From a virus, in IMG/VR virus record IMGVR_UViG_3300046820_001014, positions 1 through 64,000 of that record: a stretch of 64,000 nt of DNA. One strand, 5' to 3'. The position numbers and the translations under genes were made by a program. The notes beneath the pieces were generated by a model. The model saw nothing but the letters and a program-made list of their open reading frames with translations. It was not told where the DNA came from and made no database searches. Within the stretch, counting starts at the first letter, position 1; each line of letters opens with the position of its first letter. This document shows, one piece after another, positions 19,701 to 61,267 of this stretch.

Positions 19701-22700
19701 GAGAGTGGAATGGTTACTGCAGTTGATGGTAAATCTCTTTATGATAACTTAAAGATGAATCTTGAGGGTCTTGAGAATGAGCAATTTATTCCTGTACTTG
19801 AGAAACTAGCTAGTAGTAAAAAAGAAACTCCTTATACTAAGAGTATGAAAGAGTTCTTAAAACTCTTTAAAGCTGATCAAACATTTAGAACCCAATGTTA
19901 CAATGCATTTTCTAATTACTTTGTACCATCATACTCATCTAAGATTGATATTGCAGCTACACTAGTTGATGAAGAAACAGGAAAATCTACTAGAGGATTT
20001 GAGAGTAAAGTTTATGCTAATAATGCTGAGAACTATGTTGAGACTCAAATGGATACTTGGAGAGCACAACTCTTCGGTAAAACTTTAGAAAGGATTGAAA
20101 GTCCAGAAGACTTATTAAAATACATTACCATTCAGGATGAGGTATTTGATAGTCCTGCAGGAATTCCACTTATTGAATCTCTTATTAACTCTATTAATAA
20201 TAAACTAGCTACTAGAACTTCAGTAGATATTATTAACATGATTACTACTGGTAAGGATAATATTACCTTACAAAAACTAGCTGCTGAGAATATTCAATAC
20301 AGAATGGATCTTGGAGACCTTACTTATAAGTTTGGTGGTAAAAACTTCTACTCTATGCTTAAACAAAATTATGTGTTTAAACAACTTAAGAATTCTGAGA
20401 AGTATAAAGGTAAGTGGGGAGTATTTACTGGTGTAAACTTTAGATTAAAAACTGATAGTAAAGCTGAACAAGAACTTTATAAAGAAATAGATCCTGCTAC
20501 ATATTTCTTAACCAACTTACAACTTTATGGTGACCAAGATAAAAATGGAAATAGCTGGTATATTCCACAACAGATGGAAAATAAGAGTACTGTAGTTATT
20601 GTTAAAGGTAAAGGTAAAAGTAAAACTGACTTAAGTCCTGCTATAACTGAAGAGATTACTAGACAGACTGCATTAATTGATAGGTATATTAAAGAACTTA
20701 AATCCGGTAAATCTCTTATTAAAGGATTTCACACTTATGATAAAGTTCCTGCTGAGATTAAAAGTTTAAAAAACTTTGCTAATACTCCTGAATTTATTTC
20801 TTCTCTTATTGAGAAAGGAGTTAAAAGAGAGTTGCTTCCAAGAGCATATCAGTATATAAATATTGTTGGTGCTAATGAAACTCTTTCTACTCAGAAACCT
20901 ACTTATAATGAAAGTCTAACTTTAAATTTTATTAGAGATGAAGTTTTAGATATTAAAGATATTATTACTGAGTTAGGTCTTCCTGATGAAATATTAGCTA
21001 AAACACTTAAGATTGGTAAACAAGAAGACGTTAATAAAACTTTAATAAATTTTGCAATCTCTCAATACTTAAATAGGATGGAGATGCTTGCTGCTATGAA
21101 TCCTGAGTTAACAAAGTATAAAGACTTTGTAGATATTACTAAGAGAGGTGCAGGTCTTCTTCTTGCTGGACCTTCTCATTATAATGCTGATAGACCTGCA
21201 ACTTTTGGAACAGTAGTTCTTAAAGATGTAGAGTATACTATTAATAAAAATACTATGGAGAGAGATTCTCTTGATGGATTAATAGATGAAGAAGAAATAA
21301 AAGAAAAGAAAAAATTACTTAAGGAAATAAAAGCTACTGATGGTCAGAGTATTGAGACTATTGGTAGAAGATTAGATAGACACCTTAGACTTGGTAGAGC
21401 ATCTGAAGATCCTAATAATGATTTTTATAAGAAAGCAGAAATACTACAAGCTTATAAAGATGATGATAGAGCTAAGATTGCTGAATTAGATAGTGGTGAT
21501 ATGGCTCTAATGGTAGATAAGACTGGAGGATTTGATGGAAAGAAATATATTAAAACTTCCATATTTCCTCTTACTAGAAGTTTTACTTCTATGCAAGTAC
21601 CTGCTGGTACTGAAGGGGCTGTAGTAGATACTTATAATGGTAAATCTTATCTTCCTTATCCTCATAGAATTGAATCTTATAACCAGTTTAATAAGTTACA
21701 AGCTCTTGAAGTTGAGGTAACTAATACTAAAAGAGCTAGTGGTGAGATTAAGAAAACAGATAATATATATTTTGAAGCTCATTTTGCTAGTGCTATTAAG
21801 TTAGGACTAACTGATATTAATCCATTAGATGCTGAGAAATATGAGTACTCAGAATATAATAATGCTGATTACAGACTTCAACAGGAGAATCCATCTGGTA
21901 AAGATGAGATTAAAGATGGCACTCAATTAATTCAACTTATTGGTGCATTCCTTCCTGATGATATACAGTTCTCAGGAGACTTTAAAGAATATATAGGACC
22001 TAATGCTAGACAAGAAATTCTTAAAGATATGTCAAGAATGTTGGCAGATCTTAGAGAGTTTGATAGAAGAATGATTCCTAATGCTTTTAAAAAGCTACAA
22101 CTTCTTGGAGAAAAGAATGGAGGTATTTATGTACCATTTATTAAGTATCTACAAGATAGTAAAGAAACTTCTTCTGGTTCTGATAATGATTCTGAGTTTC
22201 TAGCTTCTAAGGATGGAGAGTTTATCTACTCTCAGAATATGCCAAACCTTATTAATGGTTATGAGCAAGCATTTATATCCTACTTTAATAAGAATCTATT
22301 CTCTCAAAAAACTCCAGGAGGTAAGGCAACTCTAGTAGCTGCTACTTATTCTGAGGTTATGGAACTTAATGGTGAAGTAATTAGTACTTGGGAATTTGAG
22401 AATAAACTTACTGCTGAAGAAAGAGCACAAGTAACTACAAGACCTCTTAAGTGTCATAAACCTAGTGGTAATCTTGAAGATACTTATGCTGAGGTTGTTT
22501 TATCTGAGGAATACCTTGAAGATATTCTTGATATTAGTCTTGAGGAGTACCACAACTTAGCTAGTGAGATGAAGGAGAAAGTTAAAACTATTCTAGGTTT
22601 CAGGATTCCTACTCAGTCTCACCATTCTATGATGCCTTGTAAGGTAGTAGATTTTGCACCTAGACATTATGGTTCAATAGTTATTGCTCCTGCAGAAATT

Positions 22701-25700
22701 ACTTATCTCTCAGGTGCTGATTATGATGTGGATAGTTTATTCTTTCAAAGATATGGTTTCTATAAAAATAAAGAAGGTAAATTAGGTCAAGTACAACTAG
22801 ATGCTAATACTTACTTCTCTACAATTATGGATAACAAGATTGTTAAGGATTACATGAAGATGAATAATCCAGAGTTAGATGTTATTAAAGTAGACATTGC
22901 TAAAAATAAAGCTGCTGTTAAAGCTTATAATATTAAACTTAGAGAATATGAAACTAATCCTCCGTCAAATTTAGAGCTTATAAAAAGTGCACAATTTAAT
23001 TTAGCTGAGGCTAAAAGTTATATAAAACTTAGACAAAGAGATTTATATAATCAAAGTAGACAAGCACTTACAAGTATACTTGAGACATTAGGTTTTCCAA
23101 CTACTGAAAAAGAGTTTAGAGCTTTAGATAGTAAAGAAAAAGCTACTTTTATTAAGGATTATAGTAATAACTCACTTCTTTCTACACGTTTAAATATTCT
23201 TACTTCTAGTTTTGAAGGTAAGTTTGCTCCTGCTATTGATAAGTTTCAAGAAATATCTAAAATAGATGAAGGTAAATTTGCTAAGTATTTTCCTAAAGCT
23301 AAGGAATCTAAGATATATACCTCATTTGTTACATTCTTTAAACACTATCTAAATAACTACTCAGGAGGTAGAGCTATTGGTGCATCAGCAAATGGTAATA
23401 AAGTATTTGCTAACTTGCATGCTACTAATAGTACTATCTCTGAGACTCTTAAAGGTGATCTTGTAAGAAGTATTAATAGAGAACTATTTACTGATACTAA
23501 TCAAATATATGGTGTAGATTGTCCATTTATAGAGGTAGATGGGAAAATAAGATTTGGTGTTTTAGGTAGTGATTCTAAAGCAGATAATCTTTCTTCTGCA
23601 GTATCTATGACTGTAGATAATGTTAAGGAACAGACTCTTGTTAAGTTTAACTTAAATGATAAAACTATGCCACTACTTACTACTGCTTTTGGTATAGGTA
23701 TTGGTAATAATGTAATGGCAGCATTCCTATTAAATCCAATAACAAAACTATTCTCTCAAACTTTCATGAAGAAATCTTCTGCATTTGGAGAGAAAGGAGT
23801 TACTATGAGAACTGTTATTGCTGGTATGCAAACTGATGTACAAACTGAGTATTCTAGACCAGTTGATGCTGAAGGACTTTATCAAATAAATCAATCTAAC
23901 TTAAATGATTTCTTAAGTGATGCTACAGAAGATACTGCTAGAAAACTAGAGATACTTACTAAGTTTGTAAATGGAGATATTAAACTACAACAACTTGAGG
24001 ATGCAGATAAACAATTTATAGAAAGACAATTTGCATTACTTGATTTATACTCAAGTATTGCTGAGATTGCTGAAGACTCATTTGTAATTAATACTCTATT
24101 AAACTTAAATAAAGAACTTGGAGAACAATCTTCTGATGTAGATTATGTTCTTGCTAGATTTGATAAAGCTAAAAAAGGTGATGATCCTGAGGGGATGCCT
24201 CCATCAAGATTCTCATTTGATTATAAAATAACTTCTTCTGTACAAGCTAATATTAATAGTGTTGTTACAGCAAAAAAACTTCTTGATGAGAATTTATTAT
24301 TCTATGGAGAAAACATGCAAGAACTATTTAAGAATGTAGATAATGTATGTTTAGGAACTCCTAATAGTAAATCAGATTTTGAGAGTAGAGTAGAGATGAA
24401 GAAAGAATTCTTGAACTTTCTTACTATTAGAGCTTACTCTAGATTTAATCAAAGTTCTATGGATATTAATAATCTTGATTTGATTAAGGGAGGACTTGTT
24501 AAAATGTATGAGGAAAATAAAGATGCTATTCTTAAATATCCTTTTGGACAAATGCTTAAGCCTCTTGAACCTACAAGACAATATCCATTTGGAAGACTTG
24601 GTGTAGATTCTTTTAAGAAACTAGATCCAAGAAAGAAAGATGATATTATGGATAGTTTTGCAGGTATGCTTATTGATCCAGAAACTAAAGAGTTTGCAAT
24701 TGGATTACTATCCTTTATAGCTTCTCATGATAACTTTAGATTCTTAGGACAATCTGCAGTATCATTTATGAGACCAAGTATCTTTAATGCTCTTAATGAG
24801 ATTGTTAAAGGAACAGATTCTTTAGATGGTGTAGAAGAGTTCTTTGTACAAACAGATAAAGGTAAAGTTATAGATACACAGAAAGTAGCATCTAGTTTAA
24901 CTGATGATGGAAACTTTGATAAACTGTTTAAAGATTATCTCTCATTCTGGTTCTCTGATAATAGAAATGCTAAGAAACTTGATAAACTTACAAGTAAATT
25001 ACTTAAGAGTAAAGGTGGAGAACTTTATATAGAAACTAAAGATATTAAGAATATTCCTTTAGTAACATTCTTTAGTACTGAAGATGGTAGAGTTCCTGTA
25101 ATATTAGAAGGTAAGGCAGGAGGTAAAGCTTACTATAAAGTTATTAGAAGACCTAAGAATGGAACTAGTTTAAAACTTTATCAACTTACTAATACTGATA
25201 GTGCAAACTTTATTGATAGTGCTGCTAAAGCAACAACTCCTAGTCCTGAGGTTACTGCAAAAATCATTAGTATGATTAATAGCATAACTACTCTTCCAAG
25301 ATTAGAAGGATATATAGAAACTCAGAAAACTCAGTTTGATGCTCTTAATGATGAGATTATAAATGCTCTTAATGCTAAAAGAGCTGCATTAGGAAATGTA
25401 ACTACTACTCCAACATCTACTCAACCAAATAATACAAATAAACCTGAATTTGATAAACTTCCAAGTAAGTCTGCAACACCTACTATGACTTATGCAGGTA
25501 TAGGATCTAGACAATCTCCACAAGATGTTCTTAATTTAATGACTGAAGCTGCTAAATATCTTGAAACTAAAGGTTACACACTTAATACAGGAGTAACTTT
25601 TAATGGAAAAGAAGAAGGAGCTGATGGAGCATTCTCTAAAGGAACTTCTAAAAAGAATTTATTTTCTCCAGAAAATCAAGGTTCTAGAACAAAAGAACAA

Positions 25701-27923
25701 ACTATTGCTAAAGAAGTTCATCCTAATCCAAATGCTTTATCAGCTGCTGCATTAAAACTTATGGCTAGAAATACTAATCAAGTATTTGGTGAGAATTTAG
25801 ATACTCCTGTAGATTTTGTTTTATTCTATGCTAAAGAAAGTGGAGGTATCAGACCTGAAGGTGGTACTGGACAAGCTGTAGAAATGGCTAGAAGAAAAGG
25901 TATTCCTACTATTAATATGGCTGATGATAATTGGAGAGATCAATTAAAAACAGTTATTAGTAAAAAAACTACTAAACCATCTGAAGTTAAACCAGTAGTA
26001 ACACAAACTAATATACCTCCTGTACCAACAGGAAAAGCGTCTTTTAGTTATAAAAATAAAGAAATTGCTACTGAGTTTCCTTTATCTCAAGATCAAAATA
26101 CAGCTCTTGGTAAACTTGTAGATTTTGTAAATGCTCCTAGTAAAGATGTTATAACTCTTGAAGGTGCAGCTGGTACAGGTAAAACTACAATCATTGGATA
26201 TTTGCAAAAGTATTTTAAAGACTCTTCAAGTTTTGTTTATATGGCTCCTACACATGCAGCCACTGCAGAACTTGCTTTTGCTACTGTTAAAACAGGTAAT
26301 AACTCTCTTCCTGCAACAATACAAAGTTCTATTACTACTGATAAAATAACTAAACAACCAACTTTTACTGTAAAAATTAGAAGACGATTGGGAATAAATC
26401 CAGTTATTGTTGTTGATGAAAGTTCAATGCTTGGAGAAAAAGAAATCAAAGATCTTTTGATTGCTTCTAAAAATAATGGAGTTAAAGTTATTTTTATGGG
26501 AGATGAGAAACAGATTCCTAAAGTAATGCCTTCGGCAAAAGATGTTAAAGCTCTTTCACCGGCATTTACTGATTTTGATAAAGTTAGTTTACAATATGTT
26601 CATAGAACTAGCAATCAAAATATTTTATCTCTTCTTTCTGAAATGAGGAATAGTAAAACTTTTAATGTTCCTAGACCTGCAGAAAATACTAACTCTTTGC
26701 AATTCTTAGATAACTTTATTGAGTTTAAACAAAAGTTTATTGATGATTTAATGGTAGATCCTGAGAATACAGTAATGATTACTTATACCAATAGAGCAGT
26801 TAAAGATTATAATACTGATGCAAGAAAAGCTTTTGGTAGAGAAGGTGACCCAGTTGTTGGAGATGTTATTACTGGATACTTAGGGTATGCTAGTAAACAG
26901 ATTGAGAAAAAAGATATTGCTAATAGTATTCAATATACTATTACAGGAATCTTAAATAATGGTTCAGCAAAAGTTATTCAAGCAGAATCTTCAAGGTTGA
27001 AAAAACTTGCAGAAAGTGGTATTGAAGTTCCTCATGAGGCAACTACAATTTATTATCAACTATCAAGAAATGATAGTTTTGCTTTTGATGATTTAACTCT
27101 TGATGATTATCAAAATAATAATAAATATGTTTCTGGTATTTTTAGAGATTTACATAATATAACTCAAGCATTCTTAAATAAACAAGCTAGATATGAAGAT
27201 TTACTAGCAGCTCAAGCTAGTGTTTCTGAGCAAATGAGAAAAATTTCTCTTGGTCAAAATTACATCTACAATCCTAAAACTGATAGAATGGAAATATTTG
27301 ATCAGATGACTCATGAAAGTATTGATTCTAAATTAAAAGTTGAGAAGGATATAGATTATGGGCATGCTATAACTATACATAAATCTCAAGGTACAACTAT
27401 TGGTAATGTATACTTTGATTTAGCTTCTGTTAAAAGAATTAGTGATCTTAAAATTGTAGATAAAGCAGGTAACATTGTTACTACTGAAAAACAAGCTCTT
27501 GCTTATGTAGGTTTATCTAGAAGTAAGAATAAACTTATAGTATTTGATGGTGCTGGACAAGTAGGAATTAATTTTTTTAATGAAGATGAAGATGGTAATG
27601 TTCCTTCTAAAGAATCTTATACACCTACTAAAGAAGAACTTACAAACCTAAAACCAGCATTTAATCCTTGGGGAAATATTCCACCAACAGGTAATGGAGG
27701 ACCTATTATGGCAAAACTAAATAGAAGTCTATTTGGATTACCAGAACCTCAAGATGCTGGTCCTAAGCAAGTTAATGTTGATGCTGTTAATATTGTTATT
27801 GATAAAATAAAATCTAACTTTGCATTGTATAAAGATGTTCTAGGTGTTGAAAACGTAGAACAGTTAGATAACATGAATAGCTCTCAAGTAGCTACCTTAA
27901 TTAAAAACTTTTGTAAGATATGA
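13785..27923 (+). CDS. Giant virion protein: crAss-type DNA-dependent RNA polymerase fused to zincin peptidase, SLOG-like and SF1B helicase domains
   Basis: WHEAFH (18771-18788); 'GFRIPTQ' and GADYDVD (DxDxD at 22719-22733); 'YAGIGSR..GGTGQAV' (about 25485-25920); Walker A GAAGTGKT (about 26163), 'VVDESSM', 'HAITIHKSQG'. Confidence 0.85.
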   Translation: MIENNKPTVSKRVLDFSPASFNTGMEGSQYKRDLSPFEKSQDVLASSQGFWDASGNFLANIVGSTAINTAGLGASLYGVGKAIGTGEFKNIWDNELSQGLDKVQKGLDEITPFYNSEKEDKAGLFSTDYLTSAGFWGNTVGKGVSFIAGAYLGGASLAKGGSMALKGMSRASKSFGKLVNGEEATSGLINAAKQGNIPGWIERAGKSSTIKNAASFYAQKISGNMFEAGMEAKGVKEEILRGKEEEYAKLHPSAPVAPEWLKKEWDEDSSTFGNVAFGLNMLLLQIDGLGLNKTMYGYKTTKRSIEAAKDAAGKFVELSAKRKMLNKAGRIIGGGLEEAAQEGGQFIVEKTSTELGVNDKAKNFADYVNAGFKGLEQTLGTKEGQESMLAGFLLGGGGRAVGELKGATERNLQNKIGIEALNKYMLKDTIKPLVDLAGKSFDDGSGQILENATEVNDKKLFHDTKAKDFFNWASTRIEMGRYEDAVDELTQLKNTPVDVLDGIYPNHNLTEAKKHMMFDGLLNDMKDLNSMQSDVEINFGNSPYKKNILNTAYRIKNIDRRIKEMSTKDKSMLDIYHDEDLQNLLAEKEELSRDLAILMMTRPKPSSNTQEEKTAADNTDTNKALAPTNNTPTSTPDDIVSKQERKENSVGTKIPGMGVITNINNNIATIKDEKGNITHEELDNLPNEAFDEKIFTPEPTEDDEENRMLPDYKHPDTKKKDVSFVDPEINTEDPNYQFSGKEEFVQVSDFGLTNLDKMDGGLSESDAALVPEITALKEGILDKQVEFDNLDFNYSQDDSGRTSVTTGTKGQTTKNKIGYIPNINTQLAGNAKEGSKRSILQFMMDYFNKLAGTNRKKNKNSFIPVIQGIRSLLEKAGLDITPYMRPHSRIRRGVTQLNEVLQSPRFLVQGKLAMSFFKDGIYQPDPSLPKDLQDLIKTQLQLPHNQNNLGTQYVLMVERPGQKGVYTFIGVKGRKLSADEKQAYATRIAENPQGVVQLLNKELFISSEGDQIQGNDGKTYPLHYEFDRYEEKNANGEVTKAGKLYVKRFIKGTIDNSPIKDKRRSTISIQEALDRASVRTAPTVDEAFTPENLAKLQINTDKQLFDLYFQFDAKKFVAEHPLEFNEGDIINKAQQESDEKKVSDNVKYYNTMTNRLKQLAGPLYNSIKEKIKTFQENGEKFKFGKETALLFPKGQQEILGNLLYEFEENFNPETNEFPIYFYEDDITTEQPPVNTGTKAGWANNLSSIKNELSKLKNKEEKLQWLADNNYLDPFTQDGKTSNYLRNATGRVITKIKIGNITIPFYISTGQGGKTDVEVDKWYVFFGQGNNGWFNKTSGPDMNKQYGVKIFQDIANILNEVGSKKDEYKVHQDSKGFMDLKWTNTAEDQLQTVIDFITPVQPTIINGELRATPEQIIQLKQNIQTVKDRVTAELTALENKQVTQQPTEDNKLTVNVAKQIETALLNNVDIDNIVDRVKDAKEIIAAFDWALKSFPESVISEFVKGSISARDQLLSQVRSFIKQNEQPTQEPEVIIVGKAKIIKNSDGTYAVLDENDEVMLEGGTIEEANQAAKNINDFDELFGQGNTQGKDDLDPDTKAKLLKEIEETAPEEKEKILREVAVFENELARILPGIKVNIDFTKGHSYYRNAVITLTSGQVSRAKWHEAFHAIFDCFSPEEKNRAIRIAAENFAINPTELLMYKTFYDELYNKELALFQSKQTSKEPKKLTEEELVRIMYEEKIADLFQDYMENRPVERGLFQRFFDAIAKFIMHILGRTDEAPFTALFDSINRGDFANRNPNLGQEGIKLKLPNSSSAQSRQLVANLGVQTIQELRDSPRTDVGIFIKGQIEKYRTMYSNNISAKITDLKKKLVSGSITKEQLIEQVRILTNTRQIIDINNLYPPMLAAENETLIIDAVKKFGNLTDKYEVELEENDEDNTEAIKNLSLMESNMDELIEAQAVQQRISYLHYLDESGMVTAVDGKSLYDNLKMNLEGLENEQFIPVLEKLASSKKETPYTKSMKEFLKLFKADQTFRTQCYNAFSNYFVPSYSSKIDIAATLVDEETGKSTRGFESKVYANNAENYVETQMDTWRAQLFGKTLERIESPEDLLKYITIQDEVFDSPAGIPLIESLINSINNKLATRTSVDIINMITTGKDNITLQKLAAENIQYRMDLGDLTYKFGGKNFYSMLKQNYVFKQLKNSEKYKGKWGVFTGVNFRLKTDSKAEQELYKEIDPATYFLTNLQLYGDQDKNGNSWYIPQQMENKSTVVIVKGKGKSKTDLSPAITEEITRQTALIDRYIKELKSGKSLIKGFHTYDKVPAEIKSLKNFANTPEFISSLIEKGVKRELLPRAYQYINIVGANETLSTQKPTYNESLTLNFIRDEVLDIKDIITELGLPDEILAKTLKIGKQEDVNKTLINFAISQYLNRMEMLAAMNPELTKYKDFVDITKRGAGLLLAGPSHYNADRPATFGTVVLKDVEYTINKNTMERDSLDGLIDEEEIKEKKKLLKEIKATDGQSIETIGRRLDRHLRLGRASEDPNNDFYKKAEILQAYKDDDRAKIAELDSGDMALMVDKTGGFDGKKYIKTSIFPLTRSFTSMQVPAGTEGAVVDTYNGKSYLPYPHRIESYNQFNKLQALEVEVTNTKRASGEIKKTDNIYFEAHFASAIKLGLTDINPLDAEKYEYSEYNNADYRLQQENPSGKDEIKDGTQLIQLIGAFLPDDIQFSGDFKEYIGPNARQEILKDMSRMLADLREFDRRMIPNAFKKLQLLGEKNGGIYVPFIKYLQDSKETSSGSDNDSEFLASKDGEFIYSQNMPNLINGYEQAFISYFNKNLFSQKTPGGKATLVAATYSEVMELNGEVISTWEFENKLTAEERAQVTTRPLKCHKPSGNLEDTYAEVVLSEEYLEDILDISLEEYHNLASEMKEKVKTILGFRIPTQSHHSMMPCKVVDFAPRHYGSIVIAPAEITYLSGADYDVDSLFFQRYGFYKNKEGKLGQVQLDANTYFSTIMDNKIVKDYMKMNNPELDVIKVDIAKNKAAVKAYNIKLREYETNPPSNLELIKSAQFNLAEAKSYIKLRQRDLYNQSRQALTSILETLGFPTTEKEFRALDSKEKATFIKDYSNNSLLSTRLNILTSSFEGKFAPAIDKFQEISKIDEGKFAKYFPKAKESKIYTSFVTFFKHYLNNYSGGRAIGASANGNKVFANLHATNSTISETLKGDLVRSINRELFTDTNQIYGVDCPFIEVDGKIRFGVLGSDSKADNLSSAVSMTVDNVKEQTLVKFNLNDKTMPLLTTAFGIGIGNNVMAAFLLNPITKLFSQTFMKKSSAFGEKGVTMRTVIAGMQTDVQTEYSRPVDAEGLYQINQSNLNDFLSDATEDTARKLEILTKFVNGDIKLQQLEDADKQFIERQFALLDLYSSIAEIAEDSFVINTLLNLNKELGEQSSDVDYVLARFDKAKKGDDPEGMPPSRFSFDYKITSSVQANINSVVTAKKLLDENLLFYGENMQELFKNVDNVCLGTPNSKSDFESRVEMKKEFLNFLTIRAYSRFNQSSMDINNLDLIKGGLVKMYEENKDAILKYPFGQMLKPLEPTRQYPFGRLGVDSFKKLDPRKKDDIMDSFAGMLIDPETKEFAIGLLSFIASHDNFRFLGQSAVSFMRPSIFNALNEIVKGTDSLDGVEEFFVQTDKGKVIDTQKVASSLTDDGNFDKLFKDYLSFWFSDNRNAKKLDKLTSKLLKSKGGELYIETKDIKNIPLVTFFSTEDGRVPVILEGKAGGKAYYKVIRRPKNGTSLKLYQLTNTDSANFIDSAAKATTPSPEVTAKIISMINSITTLPRLEGYIETQKTQFDALNDEIINALNAKRAALGNVTTTPTSTQPNNTNKPEFDKLPSKSATPTMTYAGIGSRQSPQDVLNLMTEAAKYLETKGYTLNTGVTFNGKEEGADGAFSKGTSKKNLFSPENQGSRTKEQTIAKEVHPNPNALSAAALKLMARNTNQVFGENLDTPVDFVLFYAKESGGIRPEGGTGQAVEMARRKGIPTINMADDNWRDQLKTVISKKTTKPSEVKPVVTQTNIPPVPTGKASFSYKNKEIATEFPLSQDQNTALGKLVDFVNAPSKDVITLEGAAGTGKTTIIGYLQKYFKDSSSFVYMAPTHAATAELAFATVKTGNNSLPATIQSSITTDKITKQPTFTVKIRRRLGINPVIVVDESSMLGEKEIKDLLIASKNNGVKVIFMGDEKQIPKVMPSAKDVKALSPAFTDFDKVSLQYVHRTSNQNILSLLSEMRNSKTFNVPRPAENTNSLQFLDNFIEFKQKFIDDLMVDPENTVMITYTNRAVKDYNTDARKAFGREGDPVVGDVITGYLGYASKQIEKKDIANSIQYTITGILNNGSAKVIQAESSRLKKLAESGIEVPHEATTIYYQLSRNDSFAFDDLTLDDYQNNNKYVSGIFRDLHNITQAFLNKQARYEDLLAAQASVSEQMRKISLGQNYIYNPKTDRMEIFDQMTHESIDSKLKVEKDIDYGHAITIHKSQGTTIGNVYFDLASVKRISDLKIVDKAGNIVTTEKQALAYVGLSRSKNKLIVFDGAGQVGINFFNEDEDGNVPSKESYTPTKEELTNLKPAFNPWGNIPPTGNGGPIMAKLNRSLFGLPEPQDAGPKQVNVDAVNIVIDKIKSNFALYKDVLGVENVEQLDNMNSSQVATLIKNFCKI

Positions 27924-52787: not shown

Positions 52788-53726
52788 TTAAATATTAATT
52801 AAATAACTATTATTATACTCCTCAAGAGTATAATTCCACTCATTTTTCTCCATATGCCACTTAATTCTTTTTAAAAGATTGTTATATTCTATCTCTCCTC
52901 TATCAATTTGAGTATCAGAAATCTTATAACAATGTCTTGTAAAGAATTGAGTATCAACTACCGGCATATAACAAGAGAAAGAATAATCTGGAAATACTGT
53001 AGATAATGCAAGTTTATAGAAAGCCATTTGTCTGTAATACTTCCAGAACTCAAAACTCTCTGGAAAGAACTGTGCTCTCTTAGATGTAGTCTTTAGATCT
53101 ACAAGTACACAATACTTCTCCTTATGGTTTATAATAACTCTATCAAGTCTACTTTTACAAGGTATATCTAAGTACTCAAAGTATATCTCATACTCATTAA
53201 ATATCTCACAATTACTCCAATCTTGAAAGAGATACTTAGTACAAGCAGCATGAGATCTTAGAGCATTAACACATCCTTCTATAACTCCTTTCTGCTCTCT
53301 AGTCATAAACTGCTTACCTTGATTAAGTTCCAGTTCTGCTATATACTCATAAATATTACTTTTCTTAAGTGTATTTAAAAGAGTCTCATCTTTATAGTTA
53401 TTATAATAAGATGCTAATCTTGCAGCTTTAATAAGAACTTCATCCTGAGTCTCAACAAGATGAGAATCTTTAATCTGAAAGTATTGTGTAACTACATTAC
53501 ACAAACTCTCATTAGGTTTAGCTACCTCTGATACAACAAACTCTTCAGGACTCTCACAATACAGATGTAGGAGGCTTCCGTTTTCTAGACTTGGGCTTGG
53601 AGCTAACTTTTGTATTGTTCCCTCCAGATACATCTGAAACAGCTTTGGACTTCCTCCTTGCTCTGGGTTTATCAGGGATAGAGTGCTGTTGGCTATCTCC
53701 CTCCTCTCGTAATAATTGGTTATCAT
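52788..53726 (-). CDS. PD-(D/E)xK exonuclease (RecE/ExoVIII-like)
   Basis: 'GSLLH', 'KSRLDR', 'VDLKTT', 'YYRQMAFY'. Confidence 0.82.
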   Translation of the reverse strand: MITNYYERREIANSTLSLINPEQGGSPKLFQMYLEGTIQKLAPSPSLENGSLLHLYCESPEEFVVSEVAKPNESLCNVVTQYFQIKDSHLVETQDEVLIKAARLASYYNNYKDETLLNTLKKSNIYEYIAELELNQGKQFMTREQKGVIEGCVNALRSHAACTKYLFQDWSNCEIFNEYEIYFEYLDIPCKSRLDRVIINHKEKYCVLVDLKTTSKRAQFFPESFEFWKYYRQMAFYKLALSTVFPDYSFSCYMPVVDTQFFTRHCYKISDTQIDRGEIEYNNLLKRIKWHMEKNEWNYTLEEYNNSYLINI

Positions 53727-54087
53727 ATATTTTTTTAATTTGTTCTAATACTTCCCTACATTGTTCTTGATTTCTAGGCATAAAGAATAAGTGGTCAGAA
53801 TACTTAAATTTGAACATCTTATGCTTAATCTTAGCTTTCTCCTCAAGAAGTCCCTTTGTCTCAATAACTATCTTACTATCTGTAAGATAAAAATCAGACA
53901 CATACTCTATCTTTCTAATAGTTTTACCTTCATACTTAAAACTAGGTTGAATCTCAAAAGGTTCTTGTAGTTTTAAGCATGTAAGTAAATTATTACTTTC
54001 TAAGAGTTTGTAAAAATACAACTCTAATCCACTATCAAAGATTAAGTTGTTATACTTAATCTTCTTAGTGGCATAATATTTCCTCAT
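53554..54087 (-). CDS. DUF1064-like PD-(D/E)xK endonuclease (resolvase-like)
   Basis: 'KY..KK....FDS..E', 'YVSDF', 'IETKG'. Confidence 0.75.
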   Translation of the reverse strand: MRKYYATKKIKYNNLIFDSGLELYFYKLLESNNLLTCLKLQEPFEIQPSFKYEGKTIRKIEYVSDFYLTDSKIVIETKGLLEEKAKIKHKMFKFKYSDHLFFMPRNQEQCREVLEQIKKIYDNQLLREEGDSQQHSIPDKPRARRKSKAVSDVSGGNNTKVSSKPKSRKRKPPTSVL

Positions 54088-54098
54088 AATATTTTATA

Positions 54099-54689
54099 CT
54101 AAAATGGTAGCTCAACATGATTTATAAACTTAGTTCTTTCCTTAACTAAGTTCTCAACAAATCCAGCTAATAATTCTTCTTTAAAGCCTTTTACATCTTT
54201 AATACTATCAAACTCATATACTTTATGAAAGATATCATAAAGATTAGTAAATTCCTCATGTATAACCAACTCAGGTGTATAATCCGGATTTCTACCTTCT
54301 ACTCTACCTCCTATACTAGTATAAAATCTTTCTACATGCTCAGAATATGTATTATAAAATGCTTTAGTTACATGTATAACATTTTTTGTATAATAACCAA
54401 TATCTACTTTCTTTTTACACAAAAGAAATACTATGTTACCATCTAAATCATAAATACTATCATAGAATACATAATATGGAAAGAAAGACTTTAAGTACTT
54501 TCTATTATGAGTGCTTTTTGTATTACAAAGTAATTTTGCAAAACAATCAAATAGAGTAGTTCTAGTCTTCTTAATTGAGAATGGTTCATAATTAAAAAGA
54601 TTTACTTTCCACTTATTTATGTGAGGTATTTTAGTGGAAGCATAATACTGTCTTACTAAAGCTCTTAATTCATCTGTTGTTACTGCCAT
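54099..54689 (-). CDS. Hypothetical protein coupled to the E1 gene
   Basis: Overlaps the E1 3' end; ends in ELPF. Confidence 0.55.
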   Translation of the reverse strand: MAVTTDELRALVRQYYASTKIPHINKWKVNLFNYEPFSIKKTRTTLFDCFAKLLCNTKSTHNRKYLKSFFPYYVFYDSIYDLDGNIVFLLCKKKVDIGYYTKNVIHVTKAFYNTYSEHVERFYTSIGGRVEGRNPDYTPELVIHEEFTNLYDIFHKVYEFDSIKDVKGFKEELLAGFVENLVKERTKFINHVELPF

Positions 54690-55351
54690 GTCAAACCATT
54701 AAAAGTATGAAAGAAAGGTACTTCTCTAATCTCTTCACCAATATCTTCAATATGTTTCTGATTAGCAAGATAATTACATAAGAGTGCTACAGCTTGAGTT
54801 GCTACCATAGCTGCATAATGTCCTGTCTGCTTGTAGCTACAAGGTAAATCAGGTATCTCATCATCTCTTCTCAAAGAATCAAGATACATCTGTACATGTT
54901 CTTCCTTATGTACACAGAATATTTGAAACTCTTCTGCTTGCAATCTGGTATCTATAAAGATTTTTCTATCTTCTGTCTTACACCACTCCTCAAACATAAG
55001 TTTTCTAGCTTCCATATTGTCAAACATAGCAAAGCAGTAAGGAGTTACCTCACAACCTTCTTCATATTTACCAAGATCATCTAAGATACCATTAGAATAT
55101 TCTTTAATCATAACAGCAACTGCTGCAGCTTTAGGTTTACCTAAATCATCATACCTAAAGAATTGACAATCTAAATTTACATCCTCTACAGTATCCATCT
55201 CATAAGCAATTAAATGATGCCTAAGTCTGGATAGAAAGAAAGCTACATAAGCACCTACACCACCAAGTCCCCCTAGAATAATTTCTAGGGGTTTTTCTGT
55301 TACAAATGGTGCTGCTGAGAATCTACTAAATTCTAAACGATTATACCTCAT
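54680..55351 (-). CDS. ThiF/E1-like ubiquitin-activating (adenylating) enzyme
   Basis: GLGGVG, 'DTVEDVNLDCQ', 'KPKA', 'DNMEARK', 'IDTR', candidate catalytic Cys in 'PDLPCS'. Confidence 0.88.
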   Translation of the reverse strand: MRYNRLEFSRFSAAPFVTEKPLEIILGGLGGVGAYVAFFLSRLRHHLIAYEMDTVEDVNLDCQFFRYDDLGKPKAAAVAVMIKEYSNGILDDLGKYEEGCEVTPYCFAMFDNMEARKLMFEEWCKTEDRKIFIDTRLQAEEFQIFCVHKEEHVQMYLDSLRRDDEIPDLPCSYKQTGHYAAMVATQAVALLCNYLANQKHIEDIGEEIREVPFFHTFNGLTWQ

Positions 55352-56369
55352 TGCTTAAAAGATATTCTTGCCACTCCTTATCAGTCATTCTGGAAATATC
55401 TTTAACAGGTTTACTACTTCCAAAGGTAACTTCCTCAAAATCATCTTTAAGATCATCTAGAAGAGAATAGATAGCACCTAAACCATCAACAATAAGAGTC
55501 TTATGTTTATGTTTACTATCAACATCATCAATAAAGTTAATTAATTGAAAGAGAGAAGCTTTAGTAGCAATATCTTTACCTTGCTCTACATGATCTATGC
55601 AAAGTTTTTCTACCTGATCTAGGTATACCTCAACATCTTCTGGAGTTCTAATCTCATCCAGAGCTTCTTTTAAAGACCTAAACTTAAAATTAATAGTACC
55701 AATAGAGTACTTAGTAATAGGAGAAACTTTATAGTGGGGAGTATAAAAAGGTAAATGAGTTTGGGCATTAACAACTTTAGTAGCTTCTTTAGCTTTAAAG
55801 ATTGTATCAAACTCTTCTTGAAAATCACTACCATTTGCACCAGAGATACTTACAGGTAAAGAAAACTCCATAATAATTTTACCATCAGTAATATCTTTAG
55901 ATGTATAGTTACTATCCATACCTCTAACACCTACAGTTTGAATAATCATATCAGTAGCAATCCTAGCATTAAAATCTAATTTATTATTAACAATAACAGA
56001 TAGATGAAAAGGAAAGTTACTTATATTATCATATAGATGTTTATCATCTACACCTGATGGGCTTACACCCATATTATGATGAGAGTGAATACTGAAAAAC
56101 ATTACAGGCCACTTCTCTGAGTTATCCTCAAAATAATCAGCTAATGTTGATCCCCAATCATATTCTGTGTAACCAGAAGTACCTACATCTTTAAGTATCA
56201 AATCTATTACATGTAGTTGTAGAGTATCATCATAGATATCTCCCTCAACCTTCATGACACCTACTCCACTCCACTCTATATTAGAGCACCTGGAATTGAA
56301 ATACTTGATTTTCTCCAACACTCTGTTCTCCAGAGTTATTGGATTCTTTAGATTTTTTTTTATAATCAT
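55341..56369 (-). CDS. JAB/MPN+ metallo-isopeptidase
   Basis: 'IEWSG' Glu plus HSHHNMGVSPSGVD (HxH-x7-S-x2-D). Confidence 0.85.
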   Translation of the reverse strand: MIIKKNLKNPITLENRVLEKIKYFNSRCSNIEWSGVGVMKVEGDIYDDTLQLHVIDLILKDVGTSGYTEYDWGSTLADYFEDNSEKWPVMFFSIHSHHNMGVSPSGVDDKHLYDNISNFPFHLSVIVNNKLDFNARIATDMIIQTVGVRGMDSNYTSKDITDGKIIMEFSLPVSISGANGSDFQEEFDTIFKAKEATKVVNAQTHLPFYTPHYKVSPITKYSIGTINFKFRSLKEALDEIRTPEDVEVYLDQVEKLCIDHVEQGKDIATKASLFQLINFIDDVDSKHKHKTLIVDGLGAIYSLLDDLKDDFEEVTFGSSKPVKDISRMTDKEWQEYLLSNEV

Positions 56370-57411
56370 TGTAAATTTTATTTATTAAGTCTTCTTTAGC
56401 ATAATTATTCATAAAATACTGCAACCAATCATCAATATCAGTGTAAAGTACTCTTGAGTTTTTATATATTGTAGTATGTTTTTTATGTTTAATGTGTCTA
56501 CAATCAAACATTACATGACTTGAGAGTTTCTCTAATTTATCTTGTTTAATAGTATTATCCTCAGAAAACAAATGAAAATAATCTTTCTTAAGATCAGAAC
56601 TATTAAGGTTAAGTTTAACTTCATTCTTAAGTACAGAAATAGAGATATACTTATGAATATTATTTAATAGTTCTTCATTATTAAAGATAATACTCTGAAA
56701 TTCTGATTTTGATAAATTTTTACCTTTATTTAACTTATCTAAAGCATAATAATGATCACCATGTTCTGTCTTTTGAGAAACAGTTCTATAGAAATTTACC
56801 CAAAATATATCAGCATCATTCTCATCAAATGTATCATGATCATAATGCAAATTAGTAAGAGACATTGATAGTGGAGAAGATCCCATACAAAAAGAACTAA
56901 AATCACTACTTAAGTGAGGATGTATAAATTTAGGATTATTAATATCTACAGTAGTTCTAAAACCTCTTAGAGAAACAGTATCTATATAAAAATACATATC
57001 TCTAAGCTCAATAGGATTTCTACCAGTATTAACTTCTTGTAACATTATTTTTGGAAAATGAAATCCTAGATAATAATTTCCACTAACAGTAATTAATCCT
57101 ATTTTACAAACACTCTCATCATATAACTCAGAAGCTTTAAGCTTTCTATATTTCTGTATAAGACTAAGTTGAGTGTGATCTAGAGCATTTTTATTAAAGT
57201 TACTTAAGTTTGTAAAAAAACTAGTATCTCTACCATTAATTTTCTCATTAAGACTTGTAAAACCTAATGAGTAATACTCATAAATCCTCCACTTATTATA
57301 TTGTTTGGTATACTCCTCAACATCAATATCTAAACTGAAAATAGGTCTAAGAGCTCGGGGCCTCCTAAGAAGCCCCTTAATCTCTTTAAACTTATTACTT
57401 CTGAGTTGCAT
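56281..57411 (-). CDS. Prokaryotic E2-like conjugating enzyme
   Basis: 'HPHLSSDFSSFCMG' (HPx..C at UBC-like spacing), preceded by 'FHFPKI'; lies between the Ubl and JAB genes. Confidence 0.6.
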   Translation of the reverse strand: MQLRSNKFKEIKGLLRRPRALRPIFSLDIDVEEYTKQYNKWRIYEYYSLGFTSLNEKINGRDTSFFTNLSNFNKNALDHTQLSLIQKYRKLKASELYDESVCKIGLITVSGNYYLGFHFPKIMLQEVNTGRNPIELRDMYFYIDTVSLRGFRTTVDINNPKFIHPHLSSDFSSFCMGSSPLSMSLTNLHYDHDTFDENDADIFWVNFYRTVSQKTEHGDHYYALDKLNKGKNLSKSEFQSIIFNNEELLNNIHKYISISVLKNEVKLNLNSSDLKKDYFHLFSEDNTIKQDKLEKLSSHVMFDCRHIKHKKHTTIYKNSRVLYTDIDDWLQYFMNNYAKEDLINKIYNDYKKKSKESNNSGEQSVGENQVFQFQVL

Positions 57412-57928
57412 ATTTAGCCTCAGCTAAAACTCTCTCATTGAATTGTGTAGCATTAGAAGTATTTCTAATACCTAGTGCATACTCAACCTCAAATAGTCTT
57501 GCCTCAAGAACAGAACTATCAAATTGTCCTGTTGTTCTCCTTTGTAGTGTTTGCAAAACATCCTCAAGTTTTGCCTTCATTTGAGCTAGAGAATCATGAG
57601 TATAATTACCAATAATATCAATGATTACCTCATCATCATTGGTTACAGCATCAAGTCTGTACTGCTTAAGAGCAGCTCTAACTTCATGATACTCAGCCAT
57701 TGCAGCCTTCATATCCTTAGGAGAGATAAATACTTTAAGGTTACCTTCTGGAAGAGCAGCATCAGCATGCTCTAGAGAGTAAAGAGCCTTACCAACAGTA
57801 ACTGTCTTGTTACTGAAATCTACTGCAGGAAGAGCAGCTACTAGTTGAGAGAAGGTAGATACACCAGCTTCTACCTCAAATTGATTAACCTGTGAATTGT
57901 TTGTTGTTACAACAGTTACTTTACGCAT
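57395..57928 (-). CDS. Ubiquitin-like (beta-grasp) protein fused to a helical extension
   Basis: First 76 aa give a beta-beta-alpha-beta-beta-beta pattern ending 'LKVFISPKDMKAA'; first gene of the E2/JAB/E1 cluster. Confidence 0.6.
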   Translation of the reverse strand: MRKVTVVTTNNSQVNQFEVEAGVSTFSQLVAALPAVDFSNKTVTVGKALYSLEHADAALPEGNLKVFISPKDMKAAMAEYHEVRAALKQYRLDAVTNDDEVIIDIIGNYTHDSLAQMKAKLEDVLQTLQRRTTGQFDSSVLEARLFEVEYALGIRNTSNATQFNERVLAEAKYATQK

Positions 57929-57939
57929 AACTTTAAGTT

Positions 57940-58896
57940 TTATAAAATTGAATTTAACAAATCCTCTATATATTCATGCCCGAGGATCTTATAGGCATCA
58001 GAGAAATCTTTAATCCCCATTTCTCTGTATTCTTTAGGGAATAATAATACTGGAATATTGAATTTCTTTCTTATAAGTATAGCAGCTTTTTTACCAGCAT
58101 TATCATTGTCTGCAAGATACAAACAATTATACTTATTTACAAGCCATGCTGGAGGGAGAACACTCTCCCCCTGCATAGCTACAGCTTGTATACCAAATAA
58201 TGATAAACATACTACATCCTTATAACTCTTAGTTATTACTAATAGTTTAGGATCATTAATATATTCTATACCTTGTATACTTTTACTATTACTTATAAAT
58301 CTATACTGTTTTCTCTCAGGAAAATAAGCTTTAACAGATGTGTCTGAGAATATGTATAAGAAACACATTTCCTCACCTCTAATGCAATTGACAAAGTTTC
58401 CTTCATTGTTTTTTACATATAAATGCTTGCATGAGTGTATATTGAATTTCTGTAAAACCTCTAAGCCTATACCATATTGTTGCCAGTATTCTAACTCCTT
58501 ATTAGAGAACTCTTTAAAGTTAACTCTTATTTCTGCACTTTTCTTCTTATCCACAAAGCTCAATCTTGCAATCTGTGTTTTATTATTTTTGTTATTTAAT
58601 AAATGATAAGGAATAGTGCTCTTTAAAGTATTATAAATATCCAACAGTGCTTCTTGGTAACTAAGTTTCTTTAGATACATAACAAAAGATATTGCGTCTC
58701 CACAAAACTCTCCTGGTCTGTTATCATAATAACGTAGTATGTTACCATAATATTGAAATGCACATGTTGGAGACTTATCTCTCCTCAAAGGACTTATAAA
58801 GTTACCTTTAACTACTGGAACGCCATAAGCTTCAAATATACTTTCCTGTGAAAAGGTTTTATAAACATAGTCCCTACTTAAATTAGAGACATACAT
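57940..58896 (-). CDS. dnaG: DNA primase (crAss-type, Toprim)
   Basis: 'SPLRRDKSPTC', 'ITKSYKDV', 'DNDNAG', 'KDFSD'. Confidence 0.85.
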   Translation of the reverse strand: MYVSNLSRDYVYKTFSQESIFEAYGVPVVKGNFISPLRRDKSPTCAFQYYGNILRYYDNRPGEFCGDAISFVMYLKKLSYQEALLDIYNTLKSTIPYHLLNNKNNKTQIARLSFVDKKKSAEIRVNFKEFSNKELEYWQQYGIGLEVLQKFNIHSCKHLYVKNNEGNFVNCIRGEEMCFLYIFSDTSVKAYFPERKQYRFISNSKSIQGIEYINDPKLLVITKSYKDVVCLSLFGIQAVAMQGESVLPPAWLVNKYNCLYLADNDNAGKKAAILIRKKFNIPVLLFPKEYREMGIKDFSDAYKILGHEYIEDLLNSIL

Positions 58897-58899
58897 TTA

Positions 58900-59484
58900 T
58901 TAAAATGGCAAGTCGTCTGCTCCAGTAGGAGCACTAGTAAAGTCAGCACTTACTTCAGGCTTAACTACTACATCAGTAGGAGTAACATTTAGCTTATCAC
59001 TATTAGGAGCAGCAATGTAACCACTCTTTGCAAATTCCAGATATCCAGATTTGCCATAGACAAGCTTAACATCAGCAGTCTTATCACTACCTACTGCAGT
59101 CACAAAGTTCTTGCAGAACTCATTGTAGTTTTTACCCTCTACTACTACATCACCAATAACAGCAGTCAATACTGTTTTGGTATCTCTAATAAAGCCCATC
59201 ATCTCAAGTGCATTAGAAACTTCATCAGTCATTTCTACACCTTTCTGACCTTTAACACCATTAAACTCAAAGTTAAATGGACAAGCTCTACCCATTGGGT
59301 TACCAGCTTGTTTAGGTTCCCACATAATTTTCTTAATGTTGCTATCAACAATTCTAAGAGACAAGACAGGATCACCAGAACCATCTTTTCTAAGAGGTTC
59401 AAAAATAGCTTCTACAGGTACATTAACATTGATACCTGGTTTTACTGAAGCAGCAGGGGCTTTTACACTATTAGTATTAAACAT
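58900..59484 (-). CDS. Putative ssDNA-binding protein
   Basis: Acidic C-terminal tail DDLPF; in the replication cluster. Confidence 0.55.
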   Translation of the reverse strand: MFNTNSVKAPAASVKPGINVNVPVEAIFEPLRKDGSGDPVLSLRIVDSNIKKIMWEPKQAGNPMGRACPFNFEFNGVKGQKGVEMTDEVSNALEMMGFIRDTKTVLTAVIGDVVVEGKNYNEFCKNFVTAVGSDKTADVKLVYGKSGYLEFAKSGYIAAPNSDKLNVTPTDVVVKPEVSADFTSAPTGADDLPF

Positions 59485-59501
59485 ATTTTTTATTTATTTT
59501 A

Positions 59502-59933
59502 TTAAAAGTTAACTTGATAAGCATTTTCTGCAATAGGACCTTCTGTATGAGGCTCTAGTACTTCTACTTCTTCCTCTACTTCCTCTTCTTGAGGAGTAAT
59601 GGCTACAAATTTATAGAATTTACCACTCTCATTATTCTCAAATACCTCTAACTTAAAGGTATTTCCTACAGATGTAAGATACTGACAAAGAGTAGGATTA
59701 GAGAAAGTTTTACTCTTATTTTCTCCTCTAGCAGTCTTCTTATAGAACTGACCATTAGGAGAGATTAATAGCAGATATGTATCATTACTCTTACCAAAGG
59801 TAAGTTCATTGTTCTGCATATTATTTAATCCAAAGAATGTTTGAGAGAACTCAAGTCTATCATTCTTAATGCGAAGATCCCAATTCTGTGTGGTATTCCT
59901 CTTTCTTGTTGTGGTTGCAATTACTTGAAACAT
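59502..59933 (-). CDS. Hypothetical protein
   Basis: Beta-rich ORF with an acidic tail. Confidence 0.5.
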   Translation of the reverse strand: MFQVIATTTRKRNTTQNWDLRIKNDRLEFSQTFFGLNNMQNNELTFGKSNDTYLLLISPNGQFYKKTARGENKSKTFSNPTLCQYLTSVGNTFKLEVFENNESGKFYKFVAITPQEEEVEEEVEVLEPHTEGPIAENAYQVNF

Positions 59934-60637: not shown

Positions 60638-61267
60638 TTATTCTTTATATTTAAAAATCCATTTGTTTTCATAATTACTTTTAACTCTTTTTTCTAATCT
60701 TGGTTTAATTTTATTTAAACTGATATTTAATTTTAAAGAACATTCTTTAATAGAGTCAAACTCATAAATAATATTATCTTCTAGATCTGTAACAATAATA
60801 GCTCTTTTATTATTTTCAGCCATTACCTTACATCTTTCAGATATAATATTTATAAATTCAATATTTTCTTTCAAAGATTTAGATTGAGCTTTTCTATGAG
60901 ATTCTGGTTTATTAGCTAAATATACCTCTAGCTTTTTTCTTCTATCTGCTCCCCAAGTTACTCCTAAAGTATTACCTGCTGTTTTGCAAATATCATAACC
61001 AAAATTATCATCATAAGACTTCCATAAATCTTTATAATATTGTTCTCTTATTAAACAATCCTCTGAGTTGCAAAACTCTACTATTTCAAACTTAAAATTA
61101 CTTTCACCATATTTGTTAAAAGCATTTTGTAAATGAGTACTAGTATGTTTGTTTAATCTTAATCTATAAAGATGTTCCCACAATCTTCTTTTAATAGTCC
61201 TTGTTGAACTTCCAACATAAACTTTACCATCTAGCAAATTTAATATTTTATAAACTCCTGACAACAT
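60638..61267 (-). CDS. GIY-YIG homing endonuclease
   Basis: 'GVYKI..VYVGS', 'REQYY', C-terminal NUMOD1-like HTH. Confidence 0.85.
   Translation of the reverse strand: MLSGVYKILNLLDGKVYVGSSTRTIKRRLWEHLYRLRLNKHTSTHLQNAFNKYGESNFKFEIVEFCNSEDCLIREQYYKDLWKSYDDNFGYDICKTAGNTLGVTWGADRRKKLEVYLANKPESHRKAQSKSLKENIEFINIISERCKVMAENNKRAIIVTDLEDNIIYEFDSIKECSLKLNISLNKIKPRLEKRVKSNYENKWIFKYKE

Follow-up and report, generated by a model that had tools for sequence, protein, structure and literature searches.

In prokaryotes, ubiquitin-like conjugation has so far been described as a function of cells and as an anti-phage defence (Bil, type II CBASS, Bub). Here we describe a viral cassette whose parts resemble those of such systems. 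The cassette lies in a stretch of 64,000 nucleotides (IMG/VR record IMGVR_UViG_3300046820_001014, positions 1 to 64,000; hereafter the window), the opening 64 kb of a linear virus record 88,419 bp long. It encodes a ubiquitin-like protein (Ubl) precursor, a candidate E2-like carrier, a JAMM/JAB metallopeptidase, a small E1-type adenylating enzyme, and a clade-specific fifth protein. We consider it moderately probable that the cassette, which crAss-like phages conserve within the replication block, encodes a phage pathway for ubiquitin-like protein conjugation. The five open reading frames (ORFs) are co-oriented on the minus strand directly 3' of a DnaG-type primase gene (58896-57940), and each overlaps the next (by 17, 89, 11, and 10 nt). 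Recomputation returned every coordinate that the original prediction had given for these genes, and it also returned the prediction's sequence motifs, namely the HPH and Cys of ORF2, the free Cys, GxGGxG loop, and missing CxxC pairs of ORF4, and the JAMM motif of ORF3. The features are as follows.

57395-57928, minus strand: ORF1, Ubl precursor, 177 aa, with a beta-grasp domain followed by a helical C-terminal domain
57701-57928, minus strand: ORF1 residues 1-76, ubiquitin-fold domain ending KDMK-A75-A76, with the predicted JAB cut after A76 (between 57701 and 57700)
57398-57700, minus strand: ORF1 residues 77-177, helical C-terminal domain, which cleavage of the precursor would set free
56281-57411, minus strand: ORF2, candidate E2-like carrier, 376 aa, with fast-evolving N- and C-terminal accessory domains
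56767-57177, minus strand: ORF2 residues 79-215, candidate UBC/UEV-like alpha/beta core, with H164-P-H166 (56922-56914) and C175 (56889-56887)
55341-56369, minus strand: ORF3, JAMM/JAB metallopeptidase, 342 aa; the JAB domain is the N-terminal ~140 aa (55950-56369), followed by ~200 C-terminal residues
54680-55351, minus strand: ORF4, minimal single-domain E1/ThiF-type adenylating enzyme, 223 aa, with Cys171 at 54841-54839
54099-54689, minus strand: ORF5, clade-specific protein in the fifth-gene position, 196 aa
57940-58896, minus strand: DnaG-type primase, upstream neighbour given for context only (phrog_12622, E 6.2e-34; TIGR01391, 2.1e-9)

By architecture, the nearest described systems are Bil and the operon type listed as 6d by Iyer et al. 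(2006). Bil (BilABCD, types I and II) likewise has a separate Ubl, E2, JAB/JAMM peptidase, and E1, and its Ubl is pre-processed by the peptidase (PMC10557695, PMC11601596). Bil is host-encoded and anti-phage and has a tandem-domain E1, whereas the present cassette is phage-encoded, its E1 is a single 223-aa adenylation domain, and its Ubl tail ends in Ala. No sequence or profile link to Bil was found for ORF1, ORF2, or ORF3. Operon type 6d has the same five-part list (Ubl, JAB, E1-like protein, the E2-like Prok-E2_D, and an alpha-helical protein), but its invariant His follows the Cys, whereas the His of ORF2 precedes it (Iyer, Burroughs and Aravind, 2006, PMC1779556). The PRTRC_ThiF model TIGR03736 is matched by 59 of 60 E1 relatives, all below threshold (22.3 bits for the window protein vs 144.75). 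No PRTRC A-F model was matched at E<=0.1 by ORF1, ORF2, ORF3, ORF5, or the neighbouring genes, and no ParB was found; the PRTRC cassette is presumably the same thing as operon type 6d.

Type II CBASS also combines E1, E2, and JAB, in Cap2 and Cap3, and the end that it conjugates is Gly or Ala (Jenson et al., 2023, PMC10097602). Cap2 is, however, an E2-E1 fusion that conjugates a cGAS-like enzyme rather than a beta-grasp protein (PMC10097602), and the present cassette has no such fusion. No CD-NTase or effector gene was present among the cassette and the neighbouring ORFs scanned, which are part of the genome. Bub (formerly 6E/DUF6527) shares a short homodimer-type E1, a JAB that cuts a Ubl-containing pre-protein, and an extra component of the fifth type (Ye et al., 2024, PMC11601596). 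It has Ubl-E2 and JAB-E1 (or E2-E1) fusions, a Cys-less E1, a Ser-type E2, and the DUF6527 serine protease (PMC11601596), whereas the genes of the present cassette are separate, Cys171 and Cys175 are invariant, and ORF2 and ORF5 fall in no Pfam family. In phages, lambda/T1 TAPI is a Ubl with a C-terminal Gly and an extension, encoded beside the JAB-containing TAPK that is predicted to release it; this pair lies in the tail module and has no E1 or E2 (PMC1779556), whereas the present cassette is in the replication module. Viral ThiF/E1-like genes are reported in an Asgard-virus preprint, in the excerpt without this cassette (10.1101/2021.07.29.454249). The likeness to Bil, CBASS Cap2/Cap3, and PRTRC cassettes drawn in the original prediction therefore stands for the parts list, but the cassette lacks the features that define membership in any of them. 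As that prediction had also supposed, no description of the cassette in crAss-like phages, functional or other, was found in the literature searched, which excluded supplementary annotation tables and subscription journals. Features specific to the window are the Ala-Ala tail of its clade, a short His-Cys spacing, a swapped fifth gene, and the contrast in rate between E1 and the E2-like and fifth genes.

Conservation of gene order is the first line of evidence that these genes belong together. An IMG/VR scan with an E1 alignment gave 194 relatives among 547 pattern matches, from which the best 80 loci were kept. Local hidden Markov model (HMM) iteration was run over 82 loci, some of them near-duplicates, and the counts that follow therefore do not equal independent lineages. 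JAB homologues are present in 80/82 loci and ORF1 homologues, after the HMM iteration, in 78/82, and a gene of 285-692 aa sits between ORF1 and JAB in 79/82. Primase, Ubl, the position-2 (E2-like) gene, JAB, and E1 occur together in each of the 77 loci whose sequence extends 4.6 kb or more upstream of E1; the remaining five end too early to show the full set. The same gene order in 77/77 loci, together with the invariant Cys and His residues across the families, indicates that the arrangement is not due to chance, and it bears out the expected synteny across crAss-like phages.

The cassette is also present in named phages. A tblastn search with ORF4 found 78 phage records, all with less than 60% identity (29 Flavobacterium, 29 Bacteroides, 12 uncultured, and a few others). 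In Flavobacterium phage FpV4 and Steigviridae phage cr111_1, the E1 gene has matching upstream neighbours, in the order primase, two to three hypothetical genes, and a gene noted as "contains metalloprotease domain [phiCrAss001]", which in cr111_1 is the ORF3 relative. At the nucleotide level, the cassette had no match in 50,697 phage records. A scan of the genomes of 185,579 species confirmed at least nine loci; four of the nine were long enough, and all four have the full phage-type order. No cellular version of the cassette was among the matches listed. Locus L089 (DASYBV010000020.1, 282327-296926) has the primase-Ubl-E2-like-JAB-E1 cassette within a 373,651-bp contig of a Puia sp. metagenome-assembled genome (MAG); integration of a crAss-like element, or chimerism of the contig, could explain this. 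In L083, L087, and L090 the cassette is on contigs binned as archaeal MAGs (Promethearchaeia, Nitrososphaerota, and an uncultured archaeon); these are probably phage contigs that were mis-binned.

ORF1 encodes the Ubl. Its AlphaFold2 (AF2) model has a mean predicted local distance difference test score (pLDDT) of 73.5, with C-terminal residues 81-130 at 90-93. Residues 3-70 have the secondary-structure order beta-beta-alpha-beta-beta, and the remainder forms five helices (73-96, 100-106, 114-133, 138-151, and 157-176). The N-domain has the beta-grasp fold of ubiquitin-like modifiers, as the original prediction proposed, and Foldseek matches of the model include the bacterial Ubl chains 8tyx_A and 8tyz_B, a point of likeness to the Bil Ubl. 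The C-terminal domain had no Pfam match. After the fold, the tail in 61 sequences is mostly (I/T/V/M)-(K/R)-S-G, with K/R at position 74 in 60/61, Ser at position 75 in 53/61, and Gly at position 76 in 54/61; the seven sequences of the window clade have M-K-A-A. Some loci encode a natural stand-alone Ubl that stops 2-5 residues beyond the conserved Gly. In L010 the Ubl gene is 82 aa and stops five residues past this Gly, and in L034, L035, and L073 the Ubl is its own ORF of 91-92 aa and the C-terminal domain is a separate ORF. These forms support a processed Ubl that is cut at this point. An Ala-ended Ubl is unusual but has precedent: the last residue of the cGAS proteins that Cap2 conjugates is either Gly or Ala, and the Cap2 thioester is still made when the Gly is mutated to Ala (PMC10097602).

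Variation in the Ubl gene extends to additional domains. L035 and L073 have an extra ORF of 157-171 aa between the stand-alone Ubl and the C-terminal-domain ORF. In three related crAss-like loci (L077:3368-4303, L072:3312-4247, and L071:3246-4166), the ORF1 homologue, with its Ubl and KSG motif, is fused at residues ~157-224 to the C-terminal domain of ribosomal protein L7/L12. The PF00542 scores are 47.2, 35.6, and 46.7 bits, respectively, against a cut-off of 25.9, and ORF1 of the window is without this domain.

E1 enzymes adenylate the C terminus of a Ubl, and ORF4 has the features of this superfamily. Pfam ThiF (PF00899) matches residues 23-206 at 32.1 bits (cut-off 28.1, E 8.1e-8), and phrog_15670 matches at 3.2e-41. 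A five-sequence ORF4 profile matched the PDB sequences of MccB (5e-10), UBA5 (6e-8), PaaA (8e-7), and NEDD8 E1 (2e-6), and also the short "THIF-type" chains 9egb-9egd (about 5e-4). The Gly-rich nucleotide loop is G28-x-G30-G31-x-G33. This loop and the acidic and basic residues of an adenylation site are kept in the family: R10, the Gly loop, D53, N59, Q63, K74, D111, N112, R116, D134, and R136 are retained in 70-71 of 71 distinct E1 sequences. We take D111 and R116 to correspond to the Mg-site motif of MoeB. Cys171 is present in 71/71 sequences, confirming the predicted conservation, and would lie in the crossover loop after the adenylation core. The ThiF/E1 identity claimed for ORF4 is well supported by these results.

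All 60 E1 relatives (alignment A5) match the ThiF, MoeB, and PRTRC_ThiF models (PRK08644, best E 4.6e-21; TIGR02354, best 4.1e-17), and all 60 are below every NCBIfam cut-off; window ORF4 scores 36 bits vs 159 for PRK08644 and 31 vs 152.2 for TIGR02354. Because none of these matches reaches its curated cut-off and the window protein scores far below, ORF4 is, judged by its sequence, an E1-superfamily enzyme of its own family and not a ThiF/MoeB equivalog. The same matches raise the question of a sulfur-carrier or other non-conjugating system, in which the adenylated Ubl would become a thiocarboxylate or acyl donor for a small molecule, tRNA, or phage DNA, with ORF2 as a transferase or scaffold. 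ThiF/MoeB models are the best matches for 60/60 E1 relatives, public records annotate ORF4 homologues as "thiamine biosynthesis protein (ThiF)", the E2 assignment of ORF2 is weak, and sets of Ubl, JAB, and E1 without E2 have been described for sulfur assimilation (Iyer et al., 2006, PMC1779556). We nevertheless consider such a system unlikely. Besides the shortfall from the ThiF/MoeB cut-offs, which holds for every member, the E1 has no CxxC zinc pairs or rhodanese domain, and ORF2, with its invariant Cys, shows strict linkage to the cassette. The Ubl tail is a single Gly/Ala after Ser/Ala, whereas the tails of ThiS and MoaD are Gly-Gly. In agreement with the original prediction, the scanned neighbours are all replication and recombination genes (primase, ATPase, DUF1064, and PD-(D/E)XK exonuclease), and no thiamine or molybdopterin genes were found among the window ORFs scanned, the scan for sulfur-transfer genes having covered part of the genome.

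One further substitution marks the window clade. E1 residue 62 (window 55168-55166) is Cys in exactly the seven window-clade sequences, the other 63 having Gly, and the same seven-sequence clade carries the Ubl Gly76-to-Ala change (window 57703-57701). The two changes may be linked, or they may merely reflect shared ancestry.

JAB/JAMM peptidases are recognized by their metal-site motif, and this motif is intact in ORF3. Each residue of E32...H95-S96-H97-x7-S105-x2-D108 is invariant or at least 90% kept in 45 full-length sequences. Pfam Prok-JAB matches 53/56 of the ORF3 N-terminal domains at E<=0.1 (best E 2e-7), in accord with the peptidase assignment first made from the motif.

ORF2, the candidate E2, is the least secure part of the pathway assignment. 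The window-clade protein and the position-2 protein of other clades are homologous (hhalign 95.8%, E 8e-9). Their family has 3368 cluster representatives (50% identity) at E<=1e-3 in an exhaustive representative search, of which the best 150 hits were inspected. R152, H166, C175, and G177 are invariant in 60/60 relatives, and P120, N128, and G218 are nearly so; the expected conservation of the Cys is therefore seen here as well. In the AF2 model (mean pLDDT 75.6, blocks 81-210 at 81-95), a helix (79-92) is followed by a four-stranded sheet (103-152), a loop with H164-P-H166 and C175, and two helices (180-190 and 197-212). An invariant Cys in a loop after the sheet is a feature of UBC/E2 proteins. 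The order of these elements is, in our judgement, that of a UBC domain, with the Cys in the loop that leads into the second long helix, making the core a candidate for UBC-like topology on the basis of the model. A wide search with ORF2 listed 50 rows, 15 of which are E2, UEV, FTS, or RWD proteins by their titles; the others are mostly helical matches to residues 1-96. In an Atlas feature search, 20 of the 30 nearest clusters belong to a set in which 15% of members carry PF14460 (Prok-E2_D), which is no more than a lead, and the ORF2 family and Prok-E2_D share an "hCxG" motif around the Cys.

Several searches gave no family assignment: ORF2 had no NCBIfam, PHROG, or PADLOC match and no sequence or profile match to UQ_con or Prok-E2 families, tblastn against the 50,697 phage records found nothing, a BFVD search returned only uncharacterised crAss-like proteins, and none of the 75 proteins found by a word-indexed search with the ORF2 profile carries a Pfam domain. 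Alternatively, ORF2 could be an adaptor of the UEV or RWD type that lacks catalytic activity, or it could have an unrelated fold. E1 would then attach the Ubl directly, or the trio of Ubl, E1, and JAB would act on the C-terminal domain of ORF1 alone, for instance to control the release of a helical effector. Cys175 and His166 are invariant in 60/60 relatives despite only 11-17% overall identity to the window protein outside its clade, which argues for catalysis by ORF2; we regard the adaptor explanation as very unlikely.

The overlap of ORF2 with ORF3 (56281-56369) is 89 nt in different frames, and the annotations of FpV4 and cr111_1 have comparable overlaps. Identity among relatives is 71-100% over the final 21 residues of ORF2 vs 29-75% in the preceding domain, as expected for dual coding with ORF3.

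Evolutionary rates differ among the genes of the cassette. Pairwise Nei-Gojobori ratios of nonsynonymous to synonymous substitution (dN/dS) were obtained against five relatives within the clade, and high dS makes the values for distant pairs rough. They are 0.14-0.21 for E1 (ORF4), 0.15-0.24 for the primase, 0.18-0.38 for the Ubl precursor (ORF1), 0.19-0.49 for JAB (ORF3), 0.38-0.66 for ORF2, and 0.44-0.74 for ORF5. Compared with the closest relative (L003), identity is 85% for ORF2 and 77% for ORF5, against 95-97% for the other four genes. Most changes in ORF2 fall in residues 1-100 and 233-355, with fewer in the core. E1 is strongly constrained and ORF2 changes fast outside its core, the pattern that a target-recognising component would show.

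Fast evolution is also typical of arms-race genes, and the high ratios of ORF2 and ORF5 (up to 0.66 and 0.74) would suit a role mainly in counter-defence. The JAMM peptidase would then strip host Ubl marks (Bil-type on virions, or type II CBASS on cGAS), and the Ubl, E1, and E2-like proteins would be decoys or competitors. A pure deconjugase, however, needs neither an E1 with conserved adenylation residues and Cys nor a processed Ubl tail. Nothing links ORF3 specifically to Cap3 or BilC, and the only PADLOC matches for the five proteins were two weak "E1-E2" matches to ORF4 (16.5 and 12.9 bits). We judge a mainly counter-defensive role improbable.

The fifth gene was counted as part of the operon in the original prediction. 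ORF5 is present and without a family match, as stated there (no Pfam, NCBIfam, PHROG, PADLOC, or usable Atlas match), but it is not a conserved fifth component. Its relatives are only 10 protein clusters, all in short or clade-related contigs. In 71/81 other loci, the fifth-gene position holds a member of either of two families that are homologous to each other (hhalign 96.1%) but to which ORF5 has no detectable homology (hhalign 0.5% and 2.6%). These position-5 proteins have no Pfam family and are absent among the ORFs of this genome. Because ORF5 appears clade-restricted and has no similarity to the position-5 families of other clades, we do not count it as part of the system.

Conjugation fits these results best because it accounts for the processed beta-grasp tail, the intact JAMM site, the intact E1 site and Cys, the linked UBC-like Cys/His protein, and the fast accessory domains. 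Under this reading, ORF1 would be made as a precursor, and ORF3 would cut just past the beta-grasp domain, between the second Ala and the Met of K-A-A-M here and after the Gly of K/R-S-G-x in other clades. The cut would free a Ubl of ~76 residues and the helical C-terminal domain. ORF4, probably a homodimer like other single-domain E1s, would adenylate Ala76 and then form a thioester through Cys171. From there the Ubl would move onto Cys175 of the UBC-like ORF2, whose rapidly changing N- and C-terminal domains would pick the target, and would end up on a lysine of a protein from the host or the phage. ORF3 may undo this last step as well. If the pathway works in this way, the Ala-ended Ubl of the window clade would be a natural Ala-ended beta-grasp modifier. 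More tentatively, we suggest that crAss-like phages may run their own Ubl tagging during replication with a one-domain E1 and a very divergent E2, and that the accessory domains and, in this clade, the swapped fifth gene set the targets.

Several results weigh against conjugation. The N-domain of the ORF1 model is of only medium confidence (block pLDDT 58-71), and the predicted mature Ubl of the window clade ends in Ala75-Ala76 rather than a C-terminal Gly. Window ORF3 scores 15.5 bits for Prok-JAB vs a 25-bit cut-off, and the ORF3 profile finds the solved structures of CSN5 and an Rpn11-like protein only at E 0.24-0.68. For ORF2, the window protein has no Pfam match, no E2 family is among the 25 families shown of the 32 matched by its 60 relatives, and its profile gave only noise (E about 1) against PDB sequences. 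Of the folds that the original prediction expected, the Ubl fold of ORF1 found Foldseek matches, but the whole ORF2 model found nothing in the PDB at E<=0.001. The E2-like HPH-to-Cys spacing claimed for ORF2 holds in the window clade (9 in seven sequences) and breaks down elsewhere in the family (12-37 in the other 53). Canonical E2s have a fixed HPN-Cys spacing. No E3 or target is known for the cassette. The term "complete conjugation operon" is thus an inference, with partial support, and the mature Ubl would end in Ala and not Gly. A link of ORF2 to Prok-E2_D was not supported by direct comparison, in which hhalign gave a probability of 0.35% against a thin four-row profile aligned from four genes in 3 of 201 Bacteroidota genomes.

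The genome around the cassette is that of a virus with a distinct replication block. Window DNA is covered in full by freshwater metagenome runs (two runs, one sample), from which it may have come; no RNA run was among those listed as containing it. The nearest named relatives of the cassette proteins are in Flavobacterium phage FpV4-type phages and Crassvirales, the window has virion-protein and tail PHROG matches, and a single ORF of 4712 aa occupies 13785-27923 on the plus strand; from these, assignment of the source phage as crAss-like is reasonable. On the 3' side of the cassette, Pfam and PHROG matches identify a DUF1064/resolvase-like gene and then a PD-(D/E)XK exonuclease. By first-start calls these two ORFs (53554-54087 and 52788-53726, both minus strand) overlap by 173 nt, and the start of the exonuclease probably lies further downstream. 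A 209-aa ORF at 60638-61267 (minus strand) is inside the replication block, and the N-terminus of its translation, read by eye, resembles a GIY-YIG homing endonuclease. In a scan of 53400-59600, promoter and terminator counts were no higher than in shuffled sequences, and there were no minus-strand terminator-like sites between the five genes.

Few viruses of guts and waters are as abundant as crAss-like phages. A complete kit for ubiquitin-like conjugation carried by a phage, if true, would reverse the roles known so far and point to protein tagging as a tool of viral takeover or counter-defence. The cassette is strictly conserved beside the primase, and the E2-like protein alone has thousands of cluster representatives. 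If they function as proposed, so small an E1 and a Ubl ending in Ala would widen the minimum thought to be needed for such a pathway. Cultured relatives that carry the cassette, Flavobacterium phage FpV4 and phiCrAss001-type Bacteroides phages, make the question testable.

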